Below are positions 15,192 to 29,209 of a DNA stretch of 29,209 nt, piece after piece. The notes below the pieces were generated by a model. That model was not told where the DNA came from. It was given only the letters and a program-made list of their open reading frames with translations, and ran no database searches. Made by a program: the position numbers and the translations under genes. The number at the start of each line of letters is the position of its first letter. Positions within the stretch are counted from its first letter, which is position 1. Source of the stretch: a virus. Taxonomy: Duplodnaviria; Heunggongvirae; Uroviricota; Caudoviricetes. The DNA is taken from positions 1-29,209 of the IMG/VR virus record IMGVR_UViG_2695420456_000023. One strand, written 5' to 3'.

Positions 15192-15537
15192 TCTCTGCTC
15201 CTGTTGATACGGAAAGGGACACAGGCACACCGTTATTCCGCCGCCCGGTCAGCTCCACCACCATTGAACCGTCAAAATTGCTGTTGATGGTGATGGAATC
15301 CAGCGTCAACCGTGGCTCCCAGCGACTCAGCGCCACATACACTGCCGACATGACCTGCAGGCGTAATGCCGGATTTTGTGGCTGATCTATCAGTGCCGAC
15401 AGCAGGGAACCATATTCCCGGCGGGCAATACGGCTACCCTGCGGTGTCAGCAGAATGTCCCGCACCGACTGGCGCAGATGATCAATATCAGTAATGACTT
15501 TGCCGCTGGTATTGTTCATCCCGCTATAAAGCGTCAT
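15178..15537 (-). CDS. W: baseplate protein W
   Basis: 119 aa between V and J; size and position of P2 gpW. Confidence 0.85.
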   Translation of the reverse strand: MTLYSGMNNTSGKVITDIDHLRQSVRDILLTPQGSRIARREYGSLLSALIDQPQNPALRLQVMSAVYVALSRWEPRLTLDSITINSNFDGSMVVELTGRRNNGVPVSLSVSTGAENGSD

Positions 15538-16112
15538 ACCGGGCCTCCGGTTGTATCGCCGCCTTTCAGGACGCCAGTATACTGATGCGCATCAACCACG
15601 ATCCCGTTAGAACTCATCGCTCCGCCGCCCTGGGTAACGCCACCATTGATCACCACTTCGCTGTTAATGCGCGTGCGGTTAGCCTCCAGTACAAACTCAC
15701 TGGTTTTCATGGTGATGTTGTCAGCAGCCTCAATGACCATTGATTTGATGCCCCTGACATACCAGCGCCCGGTGGCGGGTTCGTATTCAAACCAGCCACC
15801 GTCAGGATGTTCTGTCACGCAGGCGTCCGCCGACGTCGACGGTGGTGCGAACTGATTCGAATAGATGGCGGGCAGCGCAAACGCGGTTTCCAGATTGCCG
15901 CCCATGCTCAGCACCACCACCTGCTCATCTGGCGACGGGCACCACCATGTACGGGCACCACCGGCGCGTAGCGTCAGCCAGTTAATCCAGTTGGTTTCAA
16001 GCTCGCCTACCTTCACCCGGCACAGCCATTTGTTCCGGTCCACTTCGGTCACAATGCCGGTGCGGATCAGATTGGTGATAAGGCGCATAATTTCTGTGAG
16101 TTGTGCGTTCAT
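15534..16112 (-). CDS. V: baseplate spike/hub protein V
   Basis: N-terminal ...NAQLTEIMRLITNLIRTGIVTEVD resembles the P2 gpV N-terminus as I recall it. Start chosen at the second Met; the ORF track starts at 16127. Confidence 0.85.
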   Translation of the reverse strand: MNAQLTEIMRLITNLIRTGIVTEVDRNKWLCRVKVGELETNWINWLTLRAGGARTWWCPSPDEQVVVLSMGGNLETAFALPAIYSNQFAPPSTSADACVTEHPDGGWFEYEPATGRWYVRGIKSMVIEAADNITMKTSEFVLEANRTRINSEVVINGGVTQGGGAMSSNGIVVDAHQYTGVLKGGDTTGGPV

Positions 16113-16144
16113 GGTTGCAGTTTGCATGAAATCAAAAGAAAATA

Positions 16145-18013
16145 GTGATTTTCAAATTGTATGAAGGGTCTTACAATCCAATGAATTACAATGAAGAGCT
16201 AACCTCATATCTTAATTATTTAGTGGATCTTGAAAAATCCCCTAATTTCGCAGTAATGATTGACGGCGAATGGGGAAGCGGGAAAACATGGTTTGTCCGT
16301 AAATTAATGAATGAAGAATCACTAAAAGGGAAAGTTAAGCCATTAATGATCTCATTATATGGAATAAAATCCACCGAACAAATTGACGAAATAATTTTCA
16401 AGCAAATGCATCCCTTCCTTTCATCTAAAGGCATGTTGCTTGCTGGCACACTAACTAAGGCACTAATTAAAGGCACACTTAAGATTGATTTAAGTGATTC
16501 ATTCGTTACAAGTGTAGAGGGCTCCCCAGAACTACCCAACGTAAGCATTAAAGACTTTTACTACTCACCAGAAAACACCATATTGATATTTGATGATCTT
16601 GAACGCTGCGAATTAGATTGGAATTCTATATTTGGTTATATAAATAATTTCGTTGAAGAAAAAGAATGCAAGGTTTTGATTATCGCCAATGAGAGAGAAA
16701 TATTAAACCCCGCTAGAAATAAAAATCATGATGGTATTTATTTAGATGCAAAAGAAAAAGTTATAGGTATAACTTTCAAATATCAACCTCAACATTCTCA
16801 CGCCTACGAATATTTTCTAAAAAATATAACTAGCGAACTCAACACCATTCTGAACATAAAAAATATTGAGAGCTTACTCACTCTTTCAGAGTGTAATAAC
16901 ATTAGATTAATTGAAAGGCAAATTTCTTTTTTTGAAAGAATATTCAAAATATTACCAGCACAGTTTCAGCAAAATTCAGCTTTGACACTCAGATTATATC
17001 AATTACATTTTATACTCTATTTTGAATCTAATAAAATAAAACGAACCGTTTCTGACTTGTTAACATATAAAATAGATGATGATAATAAATACACATCCAA
17101 TTTAATTGAAAAATATGGTACAACTTATTTGTCAAATTTAATCTTAGACGAGGATACCTGGATCGATATAATTGACAATCAGAAAATCAATCAAGAAAAA
17201 ATAATATCTGAATTAATAACATTCGTCAGTGTTTCTAATAAAACAATTGAGCCATGGACACAACTTTGGAATTATGATCGATTAAAATACACAGAATTTG
17301 AGGAAAATTACAATTCAACACTTCATACGCTTATTAATTTTGAAATATTGAACGAGCATGTTCTTAAGCATATTTACGGATTATTACTTCATTTATCCAG
17401 AGAACATATAAAACCCATCAACGAACACTATTTAACAAACTTAGCCCACTCTGCTGTTGATATTTTAGCAGAAAAAGGAATGATACAAACTAGTTATGAA
17501 ATTTTTGATGAAGACATTAAGGATGAGCGATGGAGAGGATTAACTTTTCATTGCAAAGAAACTAGGGAATTCAAGGAGCTTGTTAATTACATAGAACAAA
17601 AGAAAAATGTATTAATTGCATATCAACTTAGCCAAGACGCTCAAAAGATATTCAAATTAATACAGTCCGGAAATCATGAATATTACGCACATCTAAATTT
17701 CAACAACAAAGATATTTATTCATTTCACGACAAACCAGTTCTTTATTTTGGTGATGCTGAACAACTAACAAAAATACTGATAGACTCAACCGAGATGCAT
17801 TTCTTTGGCTATGCTATAAAAAACCGATACAACAACACCCCTTATCTAAAAGAGCTTTCTGCAGAGCGTTTTTTCCACCGCGAGCTAATTAGAAAGCTAA
17901 TTGAAAAGAAAACTCAAATAAACTCAAATATATTATCATTACAAATCGATGAGCTCATAAATGATTGTTTAACTCCCGCAATAGATAAATTAAAGCAAAG
18001 CATTGAAAATTAA
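16145..18013 (+). CDS. KAP-family P-loop NTPase (cargo gene; candidate anti-phage / abortive-infection protein)
   Basis: Walker A GEWGSGKT and Walker B-like LIFDDLER are hallmarks of KAP NTPases, the family that includes F-plasmid PifA. Strongly AT-rich compared with flanking phage genes, opposite strand to S and V. Start is GTG at 16145 or ATG at 16181. Confidence 0.8.
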   Translation: MIFKLYEGSYNPMNYNEELTSYLNYLVDLEKSPNFAVMIDGEWGSGKTWFVRKLMNEESLKGKVKPLMISLYGIKSTEQIDEIIFKQMHPFLSSKGMLLAGTLTKALIKGTLKIDLSDSFVTSVEGSPELPNVSIKDFYYSPENTILIFDDLERCELDWNSIFGYINNFVEEKECKVLIIANEREILNPARNKNHDGIYLDAKEKVIGITFKYQPQHSHAYEYFLKNITSELNTILNIKNIESLLTLSECNNIRLIERQISFFERIFKILPAQFQQNSALTLRLYQLHFILYFESNKIKRTVSDLLTYKIDDDNKYTSNLIEKYGTTYLSNLILDEDTWIDIIDNQKINQEKIISELITFVSVSNKTIEPWTQLWNYDRLKYTEFEENYNSTLHTLINFEILNEHVLKHIYGLLLHLSREHIKPINEHYLTNLAHSAVDILAEKGMIQTSYEIFDEDIKDERWRGLTFHCKETREFKELVNYIEQKKNVLIAYQLSQDAQKIFKLIQSGNHEYYAHLNFNNKDIYSFHDKPVLYFGDAEQLTKILIDSTEMHFFGYAIKNRYNNTPYLKELSAERFFHRELIRKLIEKKTQINSNILSLQIDELINDCLTPAIDKLKQSIEN

Positions 18014-18053: not shown

Positions 18054-18497
18054 TTATGAAATACAATATATCAAAAATCTCTCAACTTCTTTTTTAATAG
18101 GCTCATTAATACCTAGCAAGCATCGTCTGGAATAATGAACTATCGGCCCACGTTTACTGACACGATCACGCAGTCCATAATGGTGAACACGGGCAATGCG
18201 CTGCACCTTACCTTCAAACTGCACGCTGGCAGAATCGGCGCTGGCGGCAGTTTTCAGGTATTTTGTGGTGCGCAGCTTCGCAAACATCTGACGTTTGATG
18301 CGGCCTTTTTTACTGCGCGCTGTTACCCGTCGCGGCTCATAACTACTGCCATCTGGATTGCGCTGCATCCTGATGTTTTGCTGCTGTGTCCGGCGCAGCT
18401 CTTGTGCCAGTTGGCGCATCATGCGACTTCTTGCAGCTGGCTCCAGATTCGCCAGTAAGGCACTCAGCCAGTCGTCCACTTTCTGCAATTCAGCCAC
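18054..18497 (-). CDS. S: tail completion protein S
   Basis: 147 aa downstream of R in P2 order; the last 85 bp or so (18054-18140) are AT-rich like the adjacent cargo. Confidence 0.85.
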   Translation of the reverse strand: MAELQKVDDWLSALLANLEPAARSRMMRQLAQELRRTQQQNIRMQRNPDGSSYEPRRVTARSKKGRIKRQMFAKLRTTKYLKTAASADSASVQFEGKVQRIARVHHYGLRDRVSKRGPIVHYSRRCLLGINEPIKKEVERFLIYCIS

Positions 18498-24000: not shown

Positions 24001-25767
24001 ATGAACACCACACTGACACCCGCAGATCTCGATCCCCGTCGGCAGGCCATGCTGCTGTACTTTCAGGGATACCGCGTAGCCCGCATTGCTGAAATGCTGG
24101 GCGAGAAAGTTGCAACCGTTCACAGCTGGAAAAAACGCGACAAGTGGGGTGACTATGGGCCGCTGGATCAGATGCAGCTCACCACCGCCGCACGCTACTG
24201 CCAGCTCATTATGAAGGAGCACAAAGAAGGGAAAGATTTCAAAGAGATTGACCTGCTGGCGCGCCAGTCGGAGCGCCATGCGCGGATCGGCAAGTTTAAC
24301 AATGGCGGCAACGAAGCCGACTTAAACCCTAACGTCGCCAACCGCAACAAAGGCCCGCGCCGTCAGCCGGAAAAGAACGTTTTCACCGATGAACAGATTG
24401 AGAAGTTGGAAGAAATCTTCCATTCCTCCATGTTCAACTACCAGCGCCACTGGTGGGAAGCCGGAAAAACCAACCGCATCCGCAACCTGCTGAAGTCACG
24501 CCAGATCGGCGCGACCTTCTATTTTGCCCGTGAAGCCCTGATTGACGCCCTGCTAACCGGGCGTAACCAGATTTTCCTTTCCGCCAGCAAGGCTCAGGCC
24601 CACGTCTTTAAGCAGTACATCATCGACTTCGCCAAAGAAGTGGAGGTGGAGCTGAAAGGCGATCCGATGGTGCTTCCTAACGGGGCCACGCTGTACTTCC
24701 TCGGCACCAATGCCCGCACGGCCCAGAGTTACCACGGCAACCTGTATCTGGATGAATATTTCTGGATACCGAAATTCCAGGAGCTGCGCAAAGTGGCTTC
24801 CGGTATGGCTATTCACAAAAAATGGCGACAAACCTATTTTTCCACGCCATCCAGCCTGACACACAGTGCTTATCCGTTCTGGTCCGGTGCGCTGTTCAAC
24901 CGAGGGCGCAACAAAGCCGATAAGGTGGACATCGACCTGTCCCACAGCAATCTGGCCCCCGGCCTGCTGTGCGCAGACGGGCAGTACCGCCAGATAGTCA
25001 CTGTGGAAGATGCGGTGCGCGGCGGCTGTAACCTGTTCGACCTCGACCAGTTGCGCATGGAGTACAGCCCGGACGAATACCAGAACCTGCTGATGTGTGA
25101 GTTCGTGGACGATCTCGCGTCTGTGTTCCCACTCAGCGAGCTGCAGGCGTGCATGGTGGACAGTTGGGAAGTCTGGACCGACTTTCATGCACTGGCCCTG
25201 CGCCCGTTTGGCTGGCGCGAAGTGTGGATCGGATATGACCCGGCGAAAGGTACGCAGAACGGCGACAGCGCCGGATGCGTGGTGGTGGCGCCGCCAGCCG
25301 TGCCGGGCGGTAAGTTCCGCATTCTTGAGCGTCACCAGTGGCGCGGAATGGACTTCCGCGCCCAGGCTGACGCCATCAAAAAACTGACCGAACAGTACAA
25401 CGTGACCTATATCGGTATCGACTCAACCGGCGTTGGTCACGGGGTTTACGAGAACGTGAAAGCGTTTTTTCCTGCCGTCCGGGAGTTTGTCTACAACCCC
25501 AACGTTAAAAACGCCCTGGTACTCAAGGCCTACGACATTATCAGCCACCGCCGTCTGGAGTTTGACGCCGGACACACCGACATAGCGCAGTCCTTTATGG
25601 CAATCCGTCGCGCCACCACCGCCAGTGGCAACCGCCCGACCTATGAAGCCAGCCGCAGCGAAGAAGCCAGCCACGCCGATCTGGCCTGGGCAACGATGCA
25701 CGCACTGTTTAACGAACCGCTGCAGGGCGAATCCGCCAATACCAGCAATATTGTGGAGATTTTTTGA
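24001..25767 (+). CDS. P: terminase large (ATPase) subunit P
   Basis: 588 aa, divergent from O and overlapping the start of Q by 4 bp; P2 gpP position. Confidence 0.9.
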   Translation: MNTTLTPADLDPRRQAMLLYFQGYRVARIAEMLGEKVATVHSWKKRDKWGDYGPLDQMQLTTAARYCQLIMKEHKEGKDFKEIDLLARQSERHARIGKFNNGGNEADLNPNVANRNKGPRRQPEKNVFTDEQIEKLEEIFHSSMFNYQRHWWEAGKTNRIRNLLKSRQIGATFYFAREALIDALLTGRNQIFLSASKAQAHVFKQYIIDFAKEVEVELKGDPMVLPNGATLYFLGTNARTAQSYHGNLYLDEYFWIPKFQELRKVASGMAIHKKWRQTYFSTPSSLTHSAYPFWSGALFNRGRNKADKVDIDLSHSNLAPGLLCADGQYRQIVTVEDAVRGGCNLFDLDQLRMEYSPDEYQNLLMCEFVDDLASVFPLSELQACMVDSWEVWTDFHALALRPFGWREVWIGYDPAKGTQNGDSAGCVVVAPPAVPGGKFRILERHQWRGMDFRAQADAIKKLTEQYNVTYIGIDSTGVGHGVYENVKAFFPAVREFVYNPNVKNALVLKAYDIISHRRLEFDAGHTDIAQSFMAIRRATTASGNRPTYEASRSEEASHADLAWATMHALFNEPLQGESANTSNIVEIF

Positions 25768-26798
25768 TGGGAAAGAGTAAGAAGAACCGCGCTGCGGCGA
25801 CGAAACAGATCCAGCTTAAAAGTCAAACTACAGCCGAAGCATTCAGCTTCGGCGATCCCGTTCCTGTTCTGGACCGCCGAGAACTGCTGGATTATGTGGA
25901 ATGCGTACAGATGGACCGTTGGTATGAGCCGCCCGTCAGCTTTGACGGACTGGCGCGCACCTTCCGCGCCGCCGTGCATCACAGTTCCCCGATTGCAGTA
26001 AAGTGCAACATTCTGACCAGTACCTATATCCCTCATCCGCTGCTCAGCCAGCAGGCTTTTTCGCGTTTTGTGCAGGACTATCTGGTATTTGGTAACGCCT
26101 ACCTGGAGAAACGCACGAACCGATTCGGTGAAGTTATCGCTCTTGAGCCTGCGCTTGCAAAATACACCCGACGCGGATTAGACCTGGATACCTACTGGTT
26201 TATGCAATACGGTATGACAACCCAGCCGTATCAGTTCACGAAAGGCAGCATTTTTCATCTGATGGAACCGGATATTAATCAGGAGATCTACGGCCTGCCC
26301 GGCTATCTTTCTGCCATCCCATCCGCTTTGCTCAACGAGTCCGCCACGCTGTTCCGCCGCAAGTATTACATTAACGGCAGTCATGCAGGCTTCATCATGT
26401 ACATGACCGATGCGGCGCAGAACCAGGAGGATGTGAACAACCTCCGCAACGCGATGAAAAGCGCCAAAGGTCCAGGCAATTTCCGCAACCTGTTTATGTA
26501 CTCACCTAATGGCAAAAAGGATGGGCTTCAGATCATTCCTCTGTCAGAAGTTGCGGCGAAGGATGAGTTTCTGAATATCAAAAATGTCAGCCGCGATGAC
26601 ATGATGGCTGCGCACCGCGTACCACCGCAAATGATGGGGATTATACCTAATAATGTTGGAGGATTTGGGGATGTGGAAAAGGCTAGCTGTGTGTTTGTGA
26701 GGAATGAGCTAATACCATTACAGGAAAGAATAAAAGGATTAAATAGTTGGTCTAATGAGAATATAATCCAATTCAAACCGTATACACTTGAATTCTAA
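25764..26798 (+). CDS. Q: portal protein Q
   Basis: 344 aa downstream of P; the final 160 bp or so of the gene are AT-rich. Confidence 0.9.
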   Translation: MMGKSKKNRAAATKQIQLKSQTTAEAFSFGDPVPVLDRRELLDYVECVQMDRWYEPPVSFDGLARTFRAAVHHSSPIAVKCNILTSTYIPHPLLSQQAFSRFVQDYLVFGNAYLEKRTNRFGEVIALEPALAKYTRRGLDLDTYWFMQYGMTTQPYQFTKGSIFHLMEPDINQEIYGLPGYLSAIPSALLNESATLFRRKYYINGSHAGFIMYMTDAAQNQEDVNNLRNAMKSAKGPGNFRNLFMYSPNGKKDGLQIIPLSEVAAKDEFLNIKNVSRDDMMAAHRVPPQMMGIIPNNVGGFGDVEKASCVFVRNELIPLQERIKGLNSWSNENIIQFKPYTLEF

Positions 26799-26801
26799 GA
26801 T

Positions 26802-26826
26802 AATGGGCGCCTACATAGGCGCCATT
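26802..26826. terminator. GC-rich palindromic hairpin between convergent Q and the cargo ATPase gene
   Basis: aatgggcgcc-tacata-ggcgccatt; no clean U-tract on either strand, so terminator function is uncertain. Confidence 0.3.
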
Positions 26827-26846
26827 ATCTATAATAAAGACATGAA

Positions 26847-28115
26847 TTAATTTGGCAACTCCAAATCATCCTTTAGATCTTTGATATCTTGATGTTGCAA
26901 CCATATTAGGAAGCCTTTATCAACAACATTCAGTTTCCTATTTGTTTGGTCATAATCCAAAATAATAGGCATTATATTTTTCTTTATTTGCAAAGACGCA
27001 GTTGATTGTAACGACTGAGTAACATTACCCAGGTTTAACTTCTCCCCTCTTGGATGTACACTTTGTAATATTGCCCTTATATCTTTAAATTTCAAACCTA
27101 ATTCAAGTTCACTAATGGTTGATGAAAGGACAGGATATAAAATCCATTTATGCATTTGAAGTTCAGTATCTTGAAATCCATCTGAAAAATTAATAAGGAA
27201 AGAATTGTAACGAGCCGATTGGTCATTAACAATTTTTGCAATGATATCCTTTCCATCCAAACCAGCTCCAATAGTTCTTTTTGTTTGCTGAGTCTCTGAT
27301 ATTCCGCATTCAATACACGCACGCCTACATGCTTCTTGCACTAAATAAATACTATTGAGACAGTGTGTTACTACATCTGCTTTGAAAGTTGGATCAAAAT
27401 CAATGTTAAGGAGTAAACCTCCTTTATCAATTGCCATCTCCAGTTCAGAATCTTGCCATTTGTCTGCGTTAACAGAAATAATCCTGCCAGTTAAGTCACC
27501 ATTGTAAACAATGAGCCGATTATCTTCTAGCCAAACTCCAACAATTACAAAAATAATGCTTGATGTTTCATGAAAGGCTTTTAATGCGATCGAAAAATCT
27601 CTTTGAGTTTCGAAAGGCATATAATGAAAATCCTCAAGAACGATAATCTTCTTGAAATTTATAGATTTTAAAGCCGCTATAACATCATTAACATCATCAA
27701 CATCAATTTCTAAAGGCGCGGTTACTTGTTCATGAGATTTCGTATCTTCGATCTCGCCTCCGGCACTCGCCACAAAACCCAAAATAGAAGTTTTTATTGA
27801 TGCAATTATTTTATTTTTCCCCGTAATACCTTTCTTGGTAGACTGAGTTATTTCGAATCCAGCTCTTTTTAAAATACTTGCATTCAATTCAGATACATCA
27901 GAACGATTCGAACACTGCACCAAAATATAATCATCAGAATTAATACAGTGTTTTCTTACGCAAGTCTTACCCTGCTTTGAACTGCCGTAAATAACAATAT
28001 GTTTCTTTGCTTGTAATTCCTGTTTAAGTTTGAAATCAACATCAGGTCTTTCAATGTAATTAAGTGGCAAATCTCTTGAGAGCCCAAAGATATCATTCGT
28101 ATCAAAAATTTCCAT
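26847..28115 (-). CDS. P-loop ATPase (AAA-like; cargo gene, candidate defence protein)
   Basis: Walker A GSSKQGKT near the N-terminus and Walker B-like IIVLEDFH about 120 residues later; 422 aa, AT-rich, located between Q and the cos-like site. Confidence 0.75.
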   Translation of the reverse strand: MEIFDTNDIFGLSRDLPLNYIERPDVDFKLKQELQAKKHIVIYGSSKQGKTCVRKHCINSDDYILVQCSNRSDVSELNASILKRAGFEITQSTKKGITGKNKIIASIKTSILGFVASAGGEIEDTKSHEQVTAPLEIDVDDVNDVIAALKSINFKKIIVLEDFHYMPFETQRDFSIALKAFHETSSIIFVIVGVWLEDNRLIVYNGDLTGRIISVNADKWQDSELEMAIDKGGLLLNIDFDPTFKADVVTHCLNSIYLVQEACRRACIECGISETQQTKRTIGAGLDGKDIIAKIVNDQSARYNSFLINFSDGFQDTELQMHKWILYPVLSSTISELELGLKFKDIRAILQSVHPRGEKLNLGNVTQSLQSTASLQIKKNIMPIILDYDQTNRKLNVVDKGFLIWLQHQDIKDLKDDLELPN

Positions 28116-28230
28116 TTTAATATTCTCAACGTTCAGAATTTGCTACTAAACATATAATGCTCCGCGTTTTTTTGCAACTTGTCTCGAATATTTATATGAG
28201 ATTGTTCTCATATAAATTAACCAGCGCGCG

Positions 28231-28249
28231 CTCGTATCCCCGCCACGCC
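28231..28249 (-). other. cos-like cohesive-end site
   Basis: Minus strand reads GGCGTGGCGGGGATACGAG. From memory the P2 and 186 cohesive ends begin GGCG(A/T)GGCGGGGA; orientation relative to Q is as expected for P2. It is a GC-rich island inside AT-rich cargo. Confidence 0.5.
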
Positions 28250-28272
28250 TGCCCGCTTTATGTAGTTGTTTT

Positions 28273-28373
28273 CATGCACCTGCATGCTCTACGCAAAAGC
28301 CCGCCAGTTCTGGTGGGCCTTAGCAATAACGATCCTCAAACGATCATGCAATCTCATGCAGTATAGGCATGCA
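28273..28373. promoter_or_regulatory. cluster of CATGCA/TGCATG hexamers (possible operator array) in the divergent cargo intergenic region
   Basis: Palindrome CATGCAccTGCATG at 28273-28286 plus CATGCA at 28345, 28355 and 28368; five hexamer copies within about 100 bp. Confidence 0.4.
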
Positions 28374-28519
28374 CAACAACTTACCTTAAGAAAAAACATC
28401 TGATATGCCCAACTGTTTCGTCTCTTTTCCAGTAGCTTGCTATGGCTTATCTTTAATGCAACTGTAATCGTGTATGAAGATACAATCCCTACCAATCATA
28501 AAAATGAGGAACACAAAGA

Positions 28520-29209
28520 ATGACTGTGCACAAGCTCTCTGGTGCGTTTTTCCACGATATGCAGGTTGAGTGGCCCTGCCCTAACTGCAATCAGAAAACC
28601 CTACAGATCATTAAAGAAAGTTTCGTCTCGTATGACACACATGATACCCGAAAATTCCGCAGTGAAGATTGGTTTGAACTAGAAATGGATTCATCTATTT
28701 TCAGTTGCATGGCCCGCTGTTCAAGAATGCAATGTGGTGAAGTTGTGGCCTGTACTGGTAAGAGTGGATGGGAACAAGGTTGGGATGAAGAAAGAAATGA
28801 TATTGAGTACTATCAATGGCACAGACCTTTCACCTTTTACCCATCACTGCATCCTTTCGAAATACCTGAAAAATGCCCAGAAGAAATTACCGAACCGCTT
28901 GAAGCCTCATTTTCCATTTTCCTAATACAGCCTGGCGCAGCAGCAAACCTAATTCGAATTTCAGTTGAAAGAATGCTAACCGCTATGGATGTAGCTGAAC
29001 GTAATGATAATGGCAAACGCATAACTCTACACCACCGTTTAGGGATGCTACCTGAATTATACGGATCGTTTTCAAGACCTCTTATGGCAATTAAATTTTT
29101 AGGAAATGCCGGAAGCCATACCTACGATGAAGTAAAAGTCAAAGACATTGAGGATGCTTTTGTGAGGTGTACTGACAATAGCGGACACTACCATTTGTTC
29201 TTTTTTTAA
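28520..29209 (+). CDS. hypothetical Cys-rich protein, truncated by the window end (candidate defence gene)
   Basis: Good RBS (gagga) 9 nt upstream of the ATG; N-terminal CPNC and CMARCSRMQCGEVVAC cysteine clusters; C-terminal RITLHH and FLGNAGSH motifs; no stop codon before the end of the window. Confidence 0.7.
   Translation: MTVHKLSGAFFHDMQVEWPCPNCNQKTLQIIKESFVSYDTHDTRKFRSEDWFELEMDSSIFSCMARCSRMQCGEVVACTGKSGWEQGWDEERNDIEYYQWHRPFTFYPSLHPFEIPEKCPEEITEPLEASFSIFLIQPGAAANLIRISVERMLTAMDVAERNDNGKRITLHHRLGMLPELYGSFSRPLMAIKFLGNAGSHTYDEVKVKDIEDAFVRCTDNSGHYHLFFF

Follow-up and report, generated by a model that had tools for sequence, protein, structure and literature searches.

P2-like phages carry variable genes around their packaging site cos, and the whole gpA-gpQ interval around cos has been described as the P2 hotspot (Rousset et al. 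2022, PMC9122126). The cargo found there includes old, tin, retrons, DprA-PRTase and TIR systems (PMC9122126, PMC9519451). Among the catalogued defence candidates, PDC-S59 of PADLOC-DB v2 is a single-gene family and one of 145 computational candidates, and the PDC families were called by 'guilt-by-embedding' in BREX, DISARM and type I restriction-modification loci (Payne et al., bioRxiv 10.1101/2024.01.29.577857). Here we analysed a gene encoding a 422-aa ATPase that lies between gpQ and cos in a P2-like prophage (IMG/VR record IMGVR_UViG_2695420456_000023). The whole stretch analysed (29,209 nt) is referred to as the window, and loci numbered with an L are the homologue neighbourhoods that were sampled.

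The open reading frame (ORF) of the ATPase (26847..28115, minus strand, ATG start, 34% GC) encodes a Walker A motif (G44-SSKQGK-T51) and a Walker B motif (I157-IVLEDF-H164), which are invariant or nearly so in 38 homologues. Residues 5-411 of the 422 aligned with positions 4-405 of the 428 in the PADLOC profile of PDC-S59 (E-value 4.8e-72, 241 bits). Judged by its sequence, the protein is a member of PDC-S59, and variable cargo rather than a packaging protein. It shares with the catalogued family the full-length profile match, the single-gene organisation and, in two homologue loci, the embedding between HmaA and HmaB, and with the described cargo of the gpA-gpQ interval the hotspot itself, the AT-richness and the replaceability. 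No description of PDC-S59 in a context close to P2 cos or next to ribonucleotide reductase (RNR) genes was found in the literature that was searched.

Family membership and predicted fold

In Pfam, the ATPase reached 21.3 bits with AAA_22 (cut-off 27), TniB remained sub-threshold and ATPase_2 (PF01637) was not matched. NCBIfam gave no match, the sole match in PHROGs was a family of unknown function (no structural or packaging PHROG was hit), and a hidden Markov model search of PDB sequences returned zero matches at E <= 10. An AlphaFold model built from the 38 homologues (pLDDT confidence score 85.5) showed a P-loop domain, a helical lid and a C-terminal helical plus winged-helix module. In this model the nucleotide-binding domain spans residues ~1-217, the lid ~218-270 and the helical linker plus winged helix ~280-420, and a beta-hairpin with a disordered loop is inserted into the P-loop domain at residues ~87-131. 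The C-terminal 205 residues, modelled alone (pLDDT 94.4), matched 2fna and NB-ARC proteins in their lid and winged helix, and also the DNA-binding winged helices of the McrA sulfur-binding domain, RepE and ORC2. As modelled, the protein is an ORC/Cdc6-STAND-type AAA+ module, with the Walker A and B motifs on an alpha/beta P-loop core that is followed by the helical lid and the winged helix, as in the ORC/Cdc6, STAND and ATPase_2 proteins.

The closest solved folds were the archaeal ATPases 2qen (PABY2304) and 2fna (SSO1545), Walker-type/AAA+ proteins that we take to be members of Pfam ATPase_2 and for which we know of no function. In the literature, SSO1545 has been described as structurally related to Cdc6/Orc1 and to NLR proteins. 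The ATPase differs from both archaeal proteins in sequence (11-14% identity) and in carrying the extra insert at ~87-131. The first-pass annotation of the window, which was made from the sequence alone, had suggested that ATPase_2 be checked as a possible subfamily and that additional C-terminal domains be sought. The former idea was borne out by the closest folds but not by any Pfam match at the sequence level; as to the latter, lid and winged-helix folds were matched but no effector fold was.

Compared with Orc1/Cdc6 and with the STAND proteins (Apaf-1, CED-4, plant NLRs, MalT and Avs), the ATPase lacks TPR, LRR or WD40 sensor repeats, an N-terminal effector and an origin-binding context. 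It is much smaller than the Avs or NLR proteins, and the 422-aa polypeptide stops after the winged helix, with neither a repeat sensor nor a fused effector. In comparison with TniB, TnsC and MuB, it has a C-terminal winged helix and lacks a conserved transposase or TniQ partner; no TniA/TnsB or TniQ/TnsD neighbour was conserved in 80 sampled loci. P2 Old, which is annotated as an 'AAA family ATPase', has a different fold and architecture. The OLD protein has been analysed in published work as an ABC ATPase coupled to TOPRIM, and the window protein contains neither an ABC-type ATPase nor a C-terminal TOPRIM nuclease.

Mean column identity was 64% over the whole length of the ATPase in the alignment of the 38 homologues. 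The histidine H354, a candidate for the 'MHD' histidine of the winged helix that contacts the bound nucleotide in STAND NTPases, is kept in the family and in the 28-41% paralogues. A four-cysteine metal site (C57, C68, C263 and C267), invariant in the first alignment, was dropped as unsupported; further members and paralogues have H, N, A, W or Y in place of C57.

The interval between Q and cos

The genes gpP (24001-25767) and gpQ (25764-26798) form part of the late region of the prophage and are encoded on the plus strand; the minus-strand ATPase gene therefore converges on Q. It is placed between the gpQ stop (26798) and a homologue of P2 cos, as the first-pass annotation had stated when it described a 422-aa ATPase with GSSKQGKT and IIVLEDFH in this interval and on the strand opposite to Q. 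The GC content of the ATPase stretch is 0.34-0.39, compared with 0.51-0.60 in the preceding phage genes. The features of this end of the window are the following.

25764..26798, plus strand: gpQ portal gene, left border of the variable cassette ('phage portal protein' in strain IMT5155)
26806..26823, no strand assigned: GC-rich hairpin (7-bp stem with 6 G-C pairs) in the gap between Q and the ATPase gene, which are convergent
26847..28115, minus strand: 422-aa AAA+ ATPase of the PDC-S59 family, with predicted nucleotide-binding domain, lid, helical linker and winged helix
28149..28177, minus strand: putative sigma-70 promoter of the ATPase gene (-35 TTGCAA at 28172-28177, 17-nt spacer, -10 TATGTT at 28149-28154)
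28190..28217, no strand assigned: 12-bp perfect inverted repeat, ATTTATATGAGA-ACAA-TCTCATATAAAT, where the ATPase cassette meets the cos block
28223..28378, no strand assigned: conserved cos block, with the 19-nt cohesive-end equivalent at 28231-28249, as aligned to the junction in P2 and to cos of Cartapus
28520..29162, plus strand: DUF4145 gene on the gpA side of cos, independent cargo, with its 3' end truncated
29163..29209, no strand assigned: end of IS600 (IS3 family), a 100% match to the annotated IS600 ends of 441 E. coli genomes

Between 28116 and the end of the window, the only minus-strand ORF of at least 40 aa that starts there is one of 68 aa that overlaps the cos flank. The ATPase has, therefore, no same-strand partner in the window, in agreement with what had been noticed at first. 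The same prophage is present in E. coli APEC IMT5155 (99.9% identity over 11.4 kb), where the ATPase ORF corresponds to WP_000402159.1, annotated as 'hypothetical protein', and the gene order is Q - ATPase - cos - DUF4145 - DinI - hypothetical protein - gpA. The ATPase gene was found in no more than 11 of the 5426 complete genomes of E. coli, and no packaging or structural family was matched by its product, both of which support the earlier view that this is variable cargo and not a packaging or structural gene.

The variable cassette fills the space between the Q stop and the cos block; it comprises the GC-rich hairpin, the coding sequence, a weak candidate promoter and the inverted repeat; the DNA of the portal region is 92-95% identical to the closest E. 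coli P2-like phage records. The hairpin scored as terminator-like on both strands, its sequence is unlike the P2 tQ terminator, and it is likely to act as a bidirectional terminator. The putative promoter scored under the threshold of a consensus scan, and its pattern (TTGCA..N17..TATNTT) is kept in the alleles from Klebsiella (86% aa identity) and from L106 (95%) despite differences in the surrounding bases; it may drive the ATPase gene. L106 retains the inverted repeat in part, and the alleles from Klebsiella, L109 and L111 lack it. The repeat was considered as an operator or as the boundary of the cassette, and both roles were rejected because it is not conserved among alleles.

The nature of the cos-like sequence was assessed by alignment. 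The 19-nt sequence GGCGTGGCGGGGATACGAG (28249 to 28231, minus strand) shares 14 of its 19 positions with GGCGAGGCGGGGAAAGCAC, the cohesive end of P2, and the block that contains it can be aligned both with P2 DNA joined across the cosR/cosL junction and with the cos annotated in phage Cartapus. By these alignments it is a true homologue of the P2 cos site, which speaks against the possibility, raised in the first-pass annotation, that it might not be the packaging site. The part conserved with P2-like phages starts at about 28216-28223 and reaches about 28378, the second matching piece of the P2-like phage records stops at 28372-28378 of the window (query 2673-2679), and the same 40-mer of the cos block was found in IMT5155 and in Klebsiella and IMG/VR prophages. 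Measured from the cohesive end, this conservation is strongly asymmetric, with ~130 bp toward gpA and only ~10 bp toward Q, which may explain why cargo is tolerated right beside the Q side of cos. The ATPase gene is located ~115 bp from the cos cut and, because of the homology of cos, it would be the leftmost gene of the genome as packaged. In P2 itself the end of Q is 167 bp from cosL, and old and tin are at the other end, in agreement with the P2 layout given in the first-pass annotation; the window ATPase thus differs from old and tin, which P2 has on the gpA side of cos, by its place on the Q side.

The presence of a gene between Q and cos had been presented as a departure from P2, but the position is not unusual: of the 25 best-matching P2-like phage records, 21 match Q and the cos block and have a different annotated gene between the two. 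Among the occupants of this interval in other P2-like phages are AIPR/Abi-alpha, TIR/SEFIR and Hypoth_Ymh genes, as well as the DUF4145 gene of Cartapus. This comparison, which the first-pass annotation had proposed, indicates that unrelated genes swap in at this position among P2-like phages. The Q-cos interval is a known and commonly occupied hotspot, and the finding is real but mostly ordinary. The ATPase gene fits the cargo of the gpA-gpQ interval in its position between A and Q beside cos (in IMT5155), in being replaced by unrelated genes and in its deviant base composition (GC 0.34 versus 0.52). WP_000402159 is listed as 'hypothetical', with differing neighbours, in Table S5A of Rousset et al. 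(PMC9122126), in which we saw no record of its being cloned or tested. Altogether, the core of the earlier description, that is, a variable cargo ATPase in the Q-cos interval, on the strand opposite to Q and lacking a partner, is supported.

Several prophages carry the gene in other arrangements. Klebsiella prophages have an 86%-identical allele in the same cos-ATPase-Q order, and in IMG/VR prophages an identical ATPase is paired with differing cargo across cos. Serratia P2-like prophages (L093-L095; also L110) carry a 76%-identical ATPase on the gpA side and a hicAB toxin-antitoxin pair between cos and Q. Since these arrangements vary, the ATPase gene is an independent cassette, found repeatedly in this hotspot and on both sides of cos. 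Homologues with 53-56% identity adjoin Q in P2-like contigs that are more distant (L112 and L116), and one homologue is inside an unrelated Burkholderia prophage.

On the other side of cos, the product of the DUF4145 gene matched Pfam DUF4145 (E-value 2.3e-11) and phrog_1305 (3e-43) and, weakly, PD-T7-4 (2e-4). The protein is intact in IMT5155 (246 aa); the window copy diverges at 29163 into IS600, where the window ends, and it is therefore truncated, the contig being probably broken at the insertion sequence.

Distribution and possible roles of the ATPase

The family is large, with 2322 matches in 90% clusters and 364 representatives at E <= 1e-30 in 50% clusters; the loci compared here came from genome and viral scans. 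Relatives with 47-62% identity were found in Proteobacteria, Acidobacteria, Cyanobacteria, Firmicutes, Actinobacteria, Bacteroidetes, Deinococcaceae, one CPR bacterium and two haloarchaea. The neighbourhoods of 80 species-representative genome loci (L013-L092) were then compared by all-against-all clustering of ORFs. No partner gene was conserved in these 80 loci, in which the next family occurred in 11 at most and at no fixed position, so the ATPase is encoded as a single gene, as expected for PDC-S59. Two of the 80 loci, both from Clostridia (L041 and L050), contain the homologue between HmaA and HmaB, an embedding in a known defence system of the kind by which PDC families were called. Other recognisable contexts included P2-like and other prophages and small islands with transposases. 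The GC content of the gene is more than 3 points under that of its flanks in 68 of 70 loci (mean difference -15 points), and the GC content at third codon positions (GC3) is lower than in the flanks in 69 of 75. In nearly all loci, then, the gene looks foreign by its base composition, and it is a horizontally acquired, stand-alone, mobile cassette ('moron'). AT-rich cargo of P2 has been described elsewhere as silenced by H-NS (bioRxiv 10.64898/2026.09.05.749240).

Some distant relatives occur in other architectures (coordinates: L099, 3731-5245; L100, 4989-7254). A Gloeothece plasmid protein has the same core followed by a C-terminal TIR domain (hhalign probability 97%), a paralogue on a Shewanella conjugative plasmid is followed by an AbiTii protein, and two long relatives (P0240 and P0259) contain an N-terminal nSTAND3 NTPase module in the same polypeptide. 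These relatives, the only ones in which TIR or nSTAND fusions were seen, tie the ATPase core to conflict systems.

We favour a role of the ATPase in defence or exclusion, by which the lysogen would be protected against other phages or mobile elements, and assign to it a probability of about 0.55. It is favoured by the full-length PDC-S59 match, the HmaA-HmaB embedding, the listing in the hotspot table, the varying cargo partners and positions around cos, the lack of a conserved partner gene, the relatives tied to conflict systems and the AT-richness. We place less confidence in the particular mechanism of switching and assembly. As a working model, the ATPase gene would have a promoter of its own, ~60-80 bp away from the cos cut, and the protein would rest in a nucleotide-bound closed state. 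A trigger, which might be phage DNA, a replication intermediate or a phage protein, would bring about nucleotide exchange and oligomerisation, as it occurs in ORC/Cdc6, TnsC/MuB and STAND proteins, which are the switches that the ATPase may most resemble in its working. The assembly itself, probably formed on nucleic acid through the C-terminal winged helix, would then block replication or expression; the assembly is proposed as the blocking agent because the ATPase has no enzymatic effector domain. Expression, DNA binding and oligomerisation are thus, like the defence activity, features that we infer for this protein.

Several observations weigh against a defence role. No nuclease, TIR or other effector fold was seen in the model of the ATPase. 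The residues of the winged-helix recognition helix are invariant and polar (N, Q, S, T), not basic, and could point to a protein partner instead of DNA. Identity of 47-62% across phyla is atypical of fast-evolving defence genes, as is stable residence next to RNR genes. Recognisable defence islands were a minority of the 80 neighbourhoods, and none of 50,697 deposited phage genomes contained the gene. Finally, no characterisation was found in the literature on PDC-S59, PA1154 or ORC-/Cdc6-like single-gene defences, and PDC-S59 is named neither in the papers searched nor in the consulted supplementary files of the PADLOC-candidate preprint.

A further question is whether the linkage to RNR genes reveals a different function. 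Two subclades of the ATPase are directly downstream of RNR genes and on the same strand (L005-L012, L015, L027, L056 and L060). Subclade I follows the class Ia genes nrdAB in P. aeruginosa, S. stutzeri (Stutzerimonas) and Vogesella, and subclade II follows the class II gene nrdJ in three Acidobacteriaceae; identity among the ATPases of these three is no more than 62-65%, which suggests a long co-residence of nrdJ and the ATPase. This linkage could reflect a functional tie to the supply of deoxyribonucleoside triphosphates (dNTPs) or to replication. The ATPase would in that case be a non-immune factor, for example a regulator or chaperone acting with RNR or at origins and tuning DNA synthesis, an explanation that also draws on a fold closest to replication initiators and loaders and on the very high conservation across domains. 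However, adjacency to RNR was found in just 4 of the 80 sampled species, and prophage hotspots or mobile contexts house the majority of copies. The ATPase homologue of P. aeruginosa, itself AT-rich, is set apart from nrdB by a strong hairpin, and co-transcription with nrdB in Pseudomonas was discarded on account of this hairpin; in one acidobacterial nrdJ locus no intergenic hairpin was predicted. To our knowledge, no pathway of cofactor assembly is common to RNR classes Ia and II. The highly conserved flanking genes may merely be recombination anchors, as Q and cos may be in P2-like phages. A non-immune role in replication or nucleotide supply is, for these reasons, unlikely.

The remaining explanations are weaker. 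The gene might be a selfish or orphan mobile-element gene, that is, a decayed regulator of the TniB/TnsC/MuB type or an addiction-like module that spreads by recombination between conserved flanks. This is rather improbable, since the loci have neither a transposase nor a TniA/TniQ partner in common, a search for terminal repeats found none and the upstream inverted repeat is not conserved, and since the strong purifying selection seen over the whole length would be hard to keep without a function. The first-pass annotation had also drawn attention to the divergent gene at 28520; the ATPase and DUF4145 might form a two-gene system across cos. The two are adjacent and divergent in the window, in IMT5155 and in two IMG/VR prophages, and the weak PD-T7-4 match of the DUF4145 protein would agree with such a system. 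Nevertheless, the identical ATPase occurs with other genes in L102, L104 and L105, in Klebsiella and in the entries of the Rousset table, DUF4145 is alone between Q and cos in Cartapus, the 80 distant loci have no conserved neighbour and IS600 disrupts the DUF4145 gene in the window. The DUF4145 gene behaves as independent cargo, and we give very little credit to the two-gene system. A role as a packaging or morphogenesis accessory at the neighbouring cos is suggested by the short distance to the cos cut, by the portal and terminase genes alongside and by the combination of an ATPase with a winged helix, and it is effectively refuted. The gene is absent from P2 and from the deposited phage genomes, unrelated genes replace it in sister phages, and it is found in archaea and in chromosomal contexts that are not phage. 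In addition to the lack of a structural or packaging PHROG, the viral structure library BFVD gave generic clamp loaders alone, with TM-scores mostly of 0.2-0.5.

A bolder reading is that a minimal, effector-less winged-helix ATPase of the ORC/STAND-like type constitutes on its own a complete immune or anti-replication module, directed at a universal target in replication or dNTP supply. The identity of 47-62% across phyla and in haloarchaea suggests a universal target instead of a variable phage protein, and a stable linkage to both class Ia and class II RNR would point to the same target. We regard this reading as speculative and unlikely.

A second cargo site and implications

The same prophage has a second AT-rich cargo site, an island at 16000-18000 with a GC content of 0.27-0.39. 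It contains a gene for a 622-aa KAP-family P-loop NTPase (16145-18013, plus strand; Pfam E-value 2.9e-16), located on the opposite strand between gpV (15534-16127) and gpS (18054-18497), which is the site of the nonessential P2 orf30.

The location of the ATPase gene is ordinary for P2-like phages and its family had already been catalogued as a candidate. What had not been described before is the RNR linkage and the conservation across domains, which could indicate a target in replication or nucleotide supply and which, together with the near-universal AT-richness, could raise the interest of the gene. A 'hypothetical protein' is now placed in PDC-S59, with a fold and a single-gene mobility, and represents a concrete and easily cloned candidate of 1.4 kb from a hotspot, the gpA-gpQ interval, that has a good validation record. 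If active, it would be among the smallest STAND/ORC-like immune proteins, with no recognisable effector, and one would have to ask how an ATP-switched winged-helix protein can by itself stop a phage. Were the universal-target reading true, it would constitute a mechanistic class apart from the nuclease-, TIR- or pore-based defences. For the biology of P2, the locus indicates that cargo is tolerated within ~10 bp on the Q side of cos, and that the same cassette can occupy either side of the packaging site.

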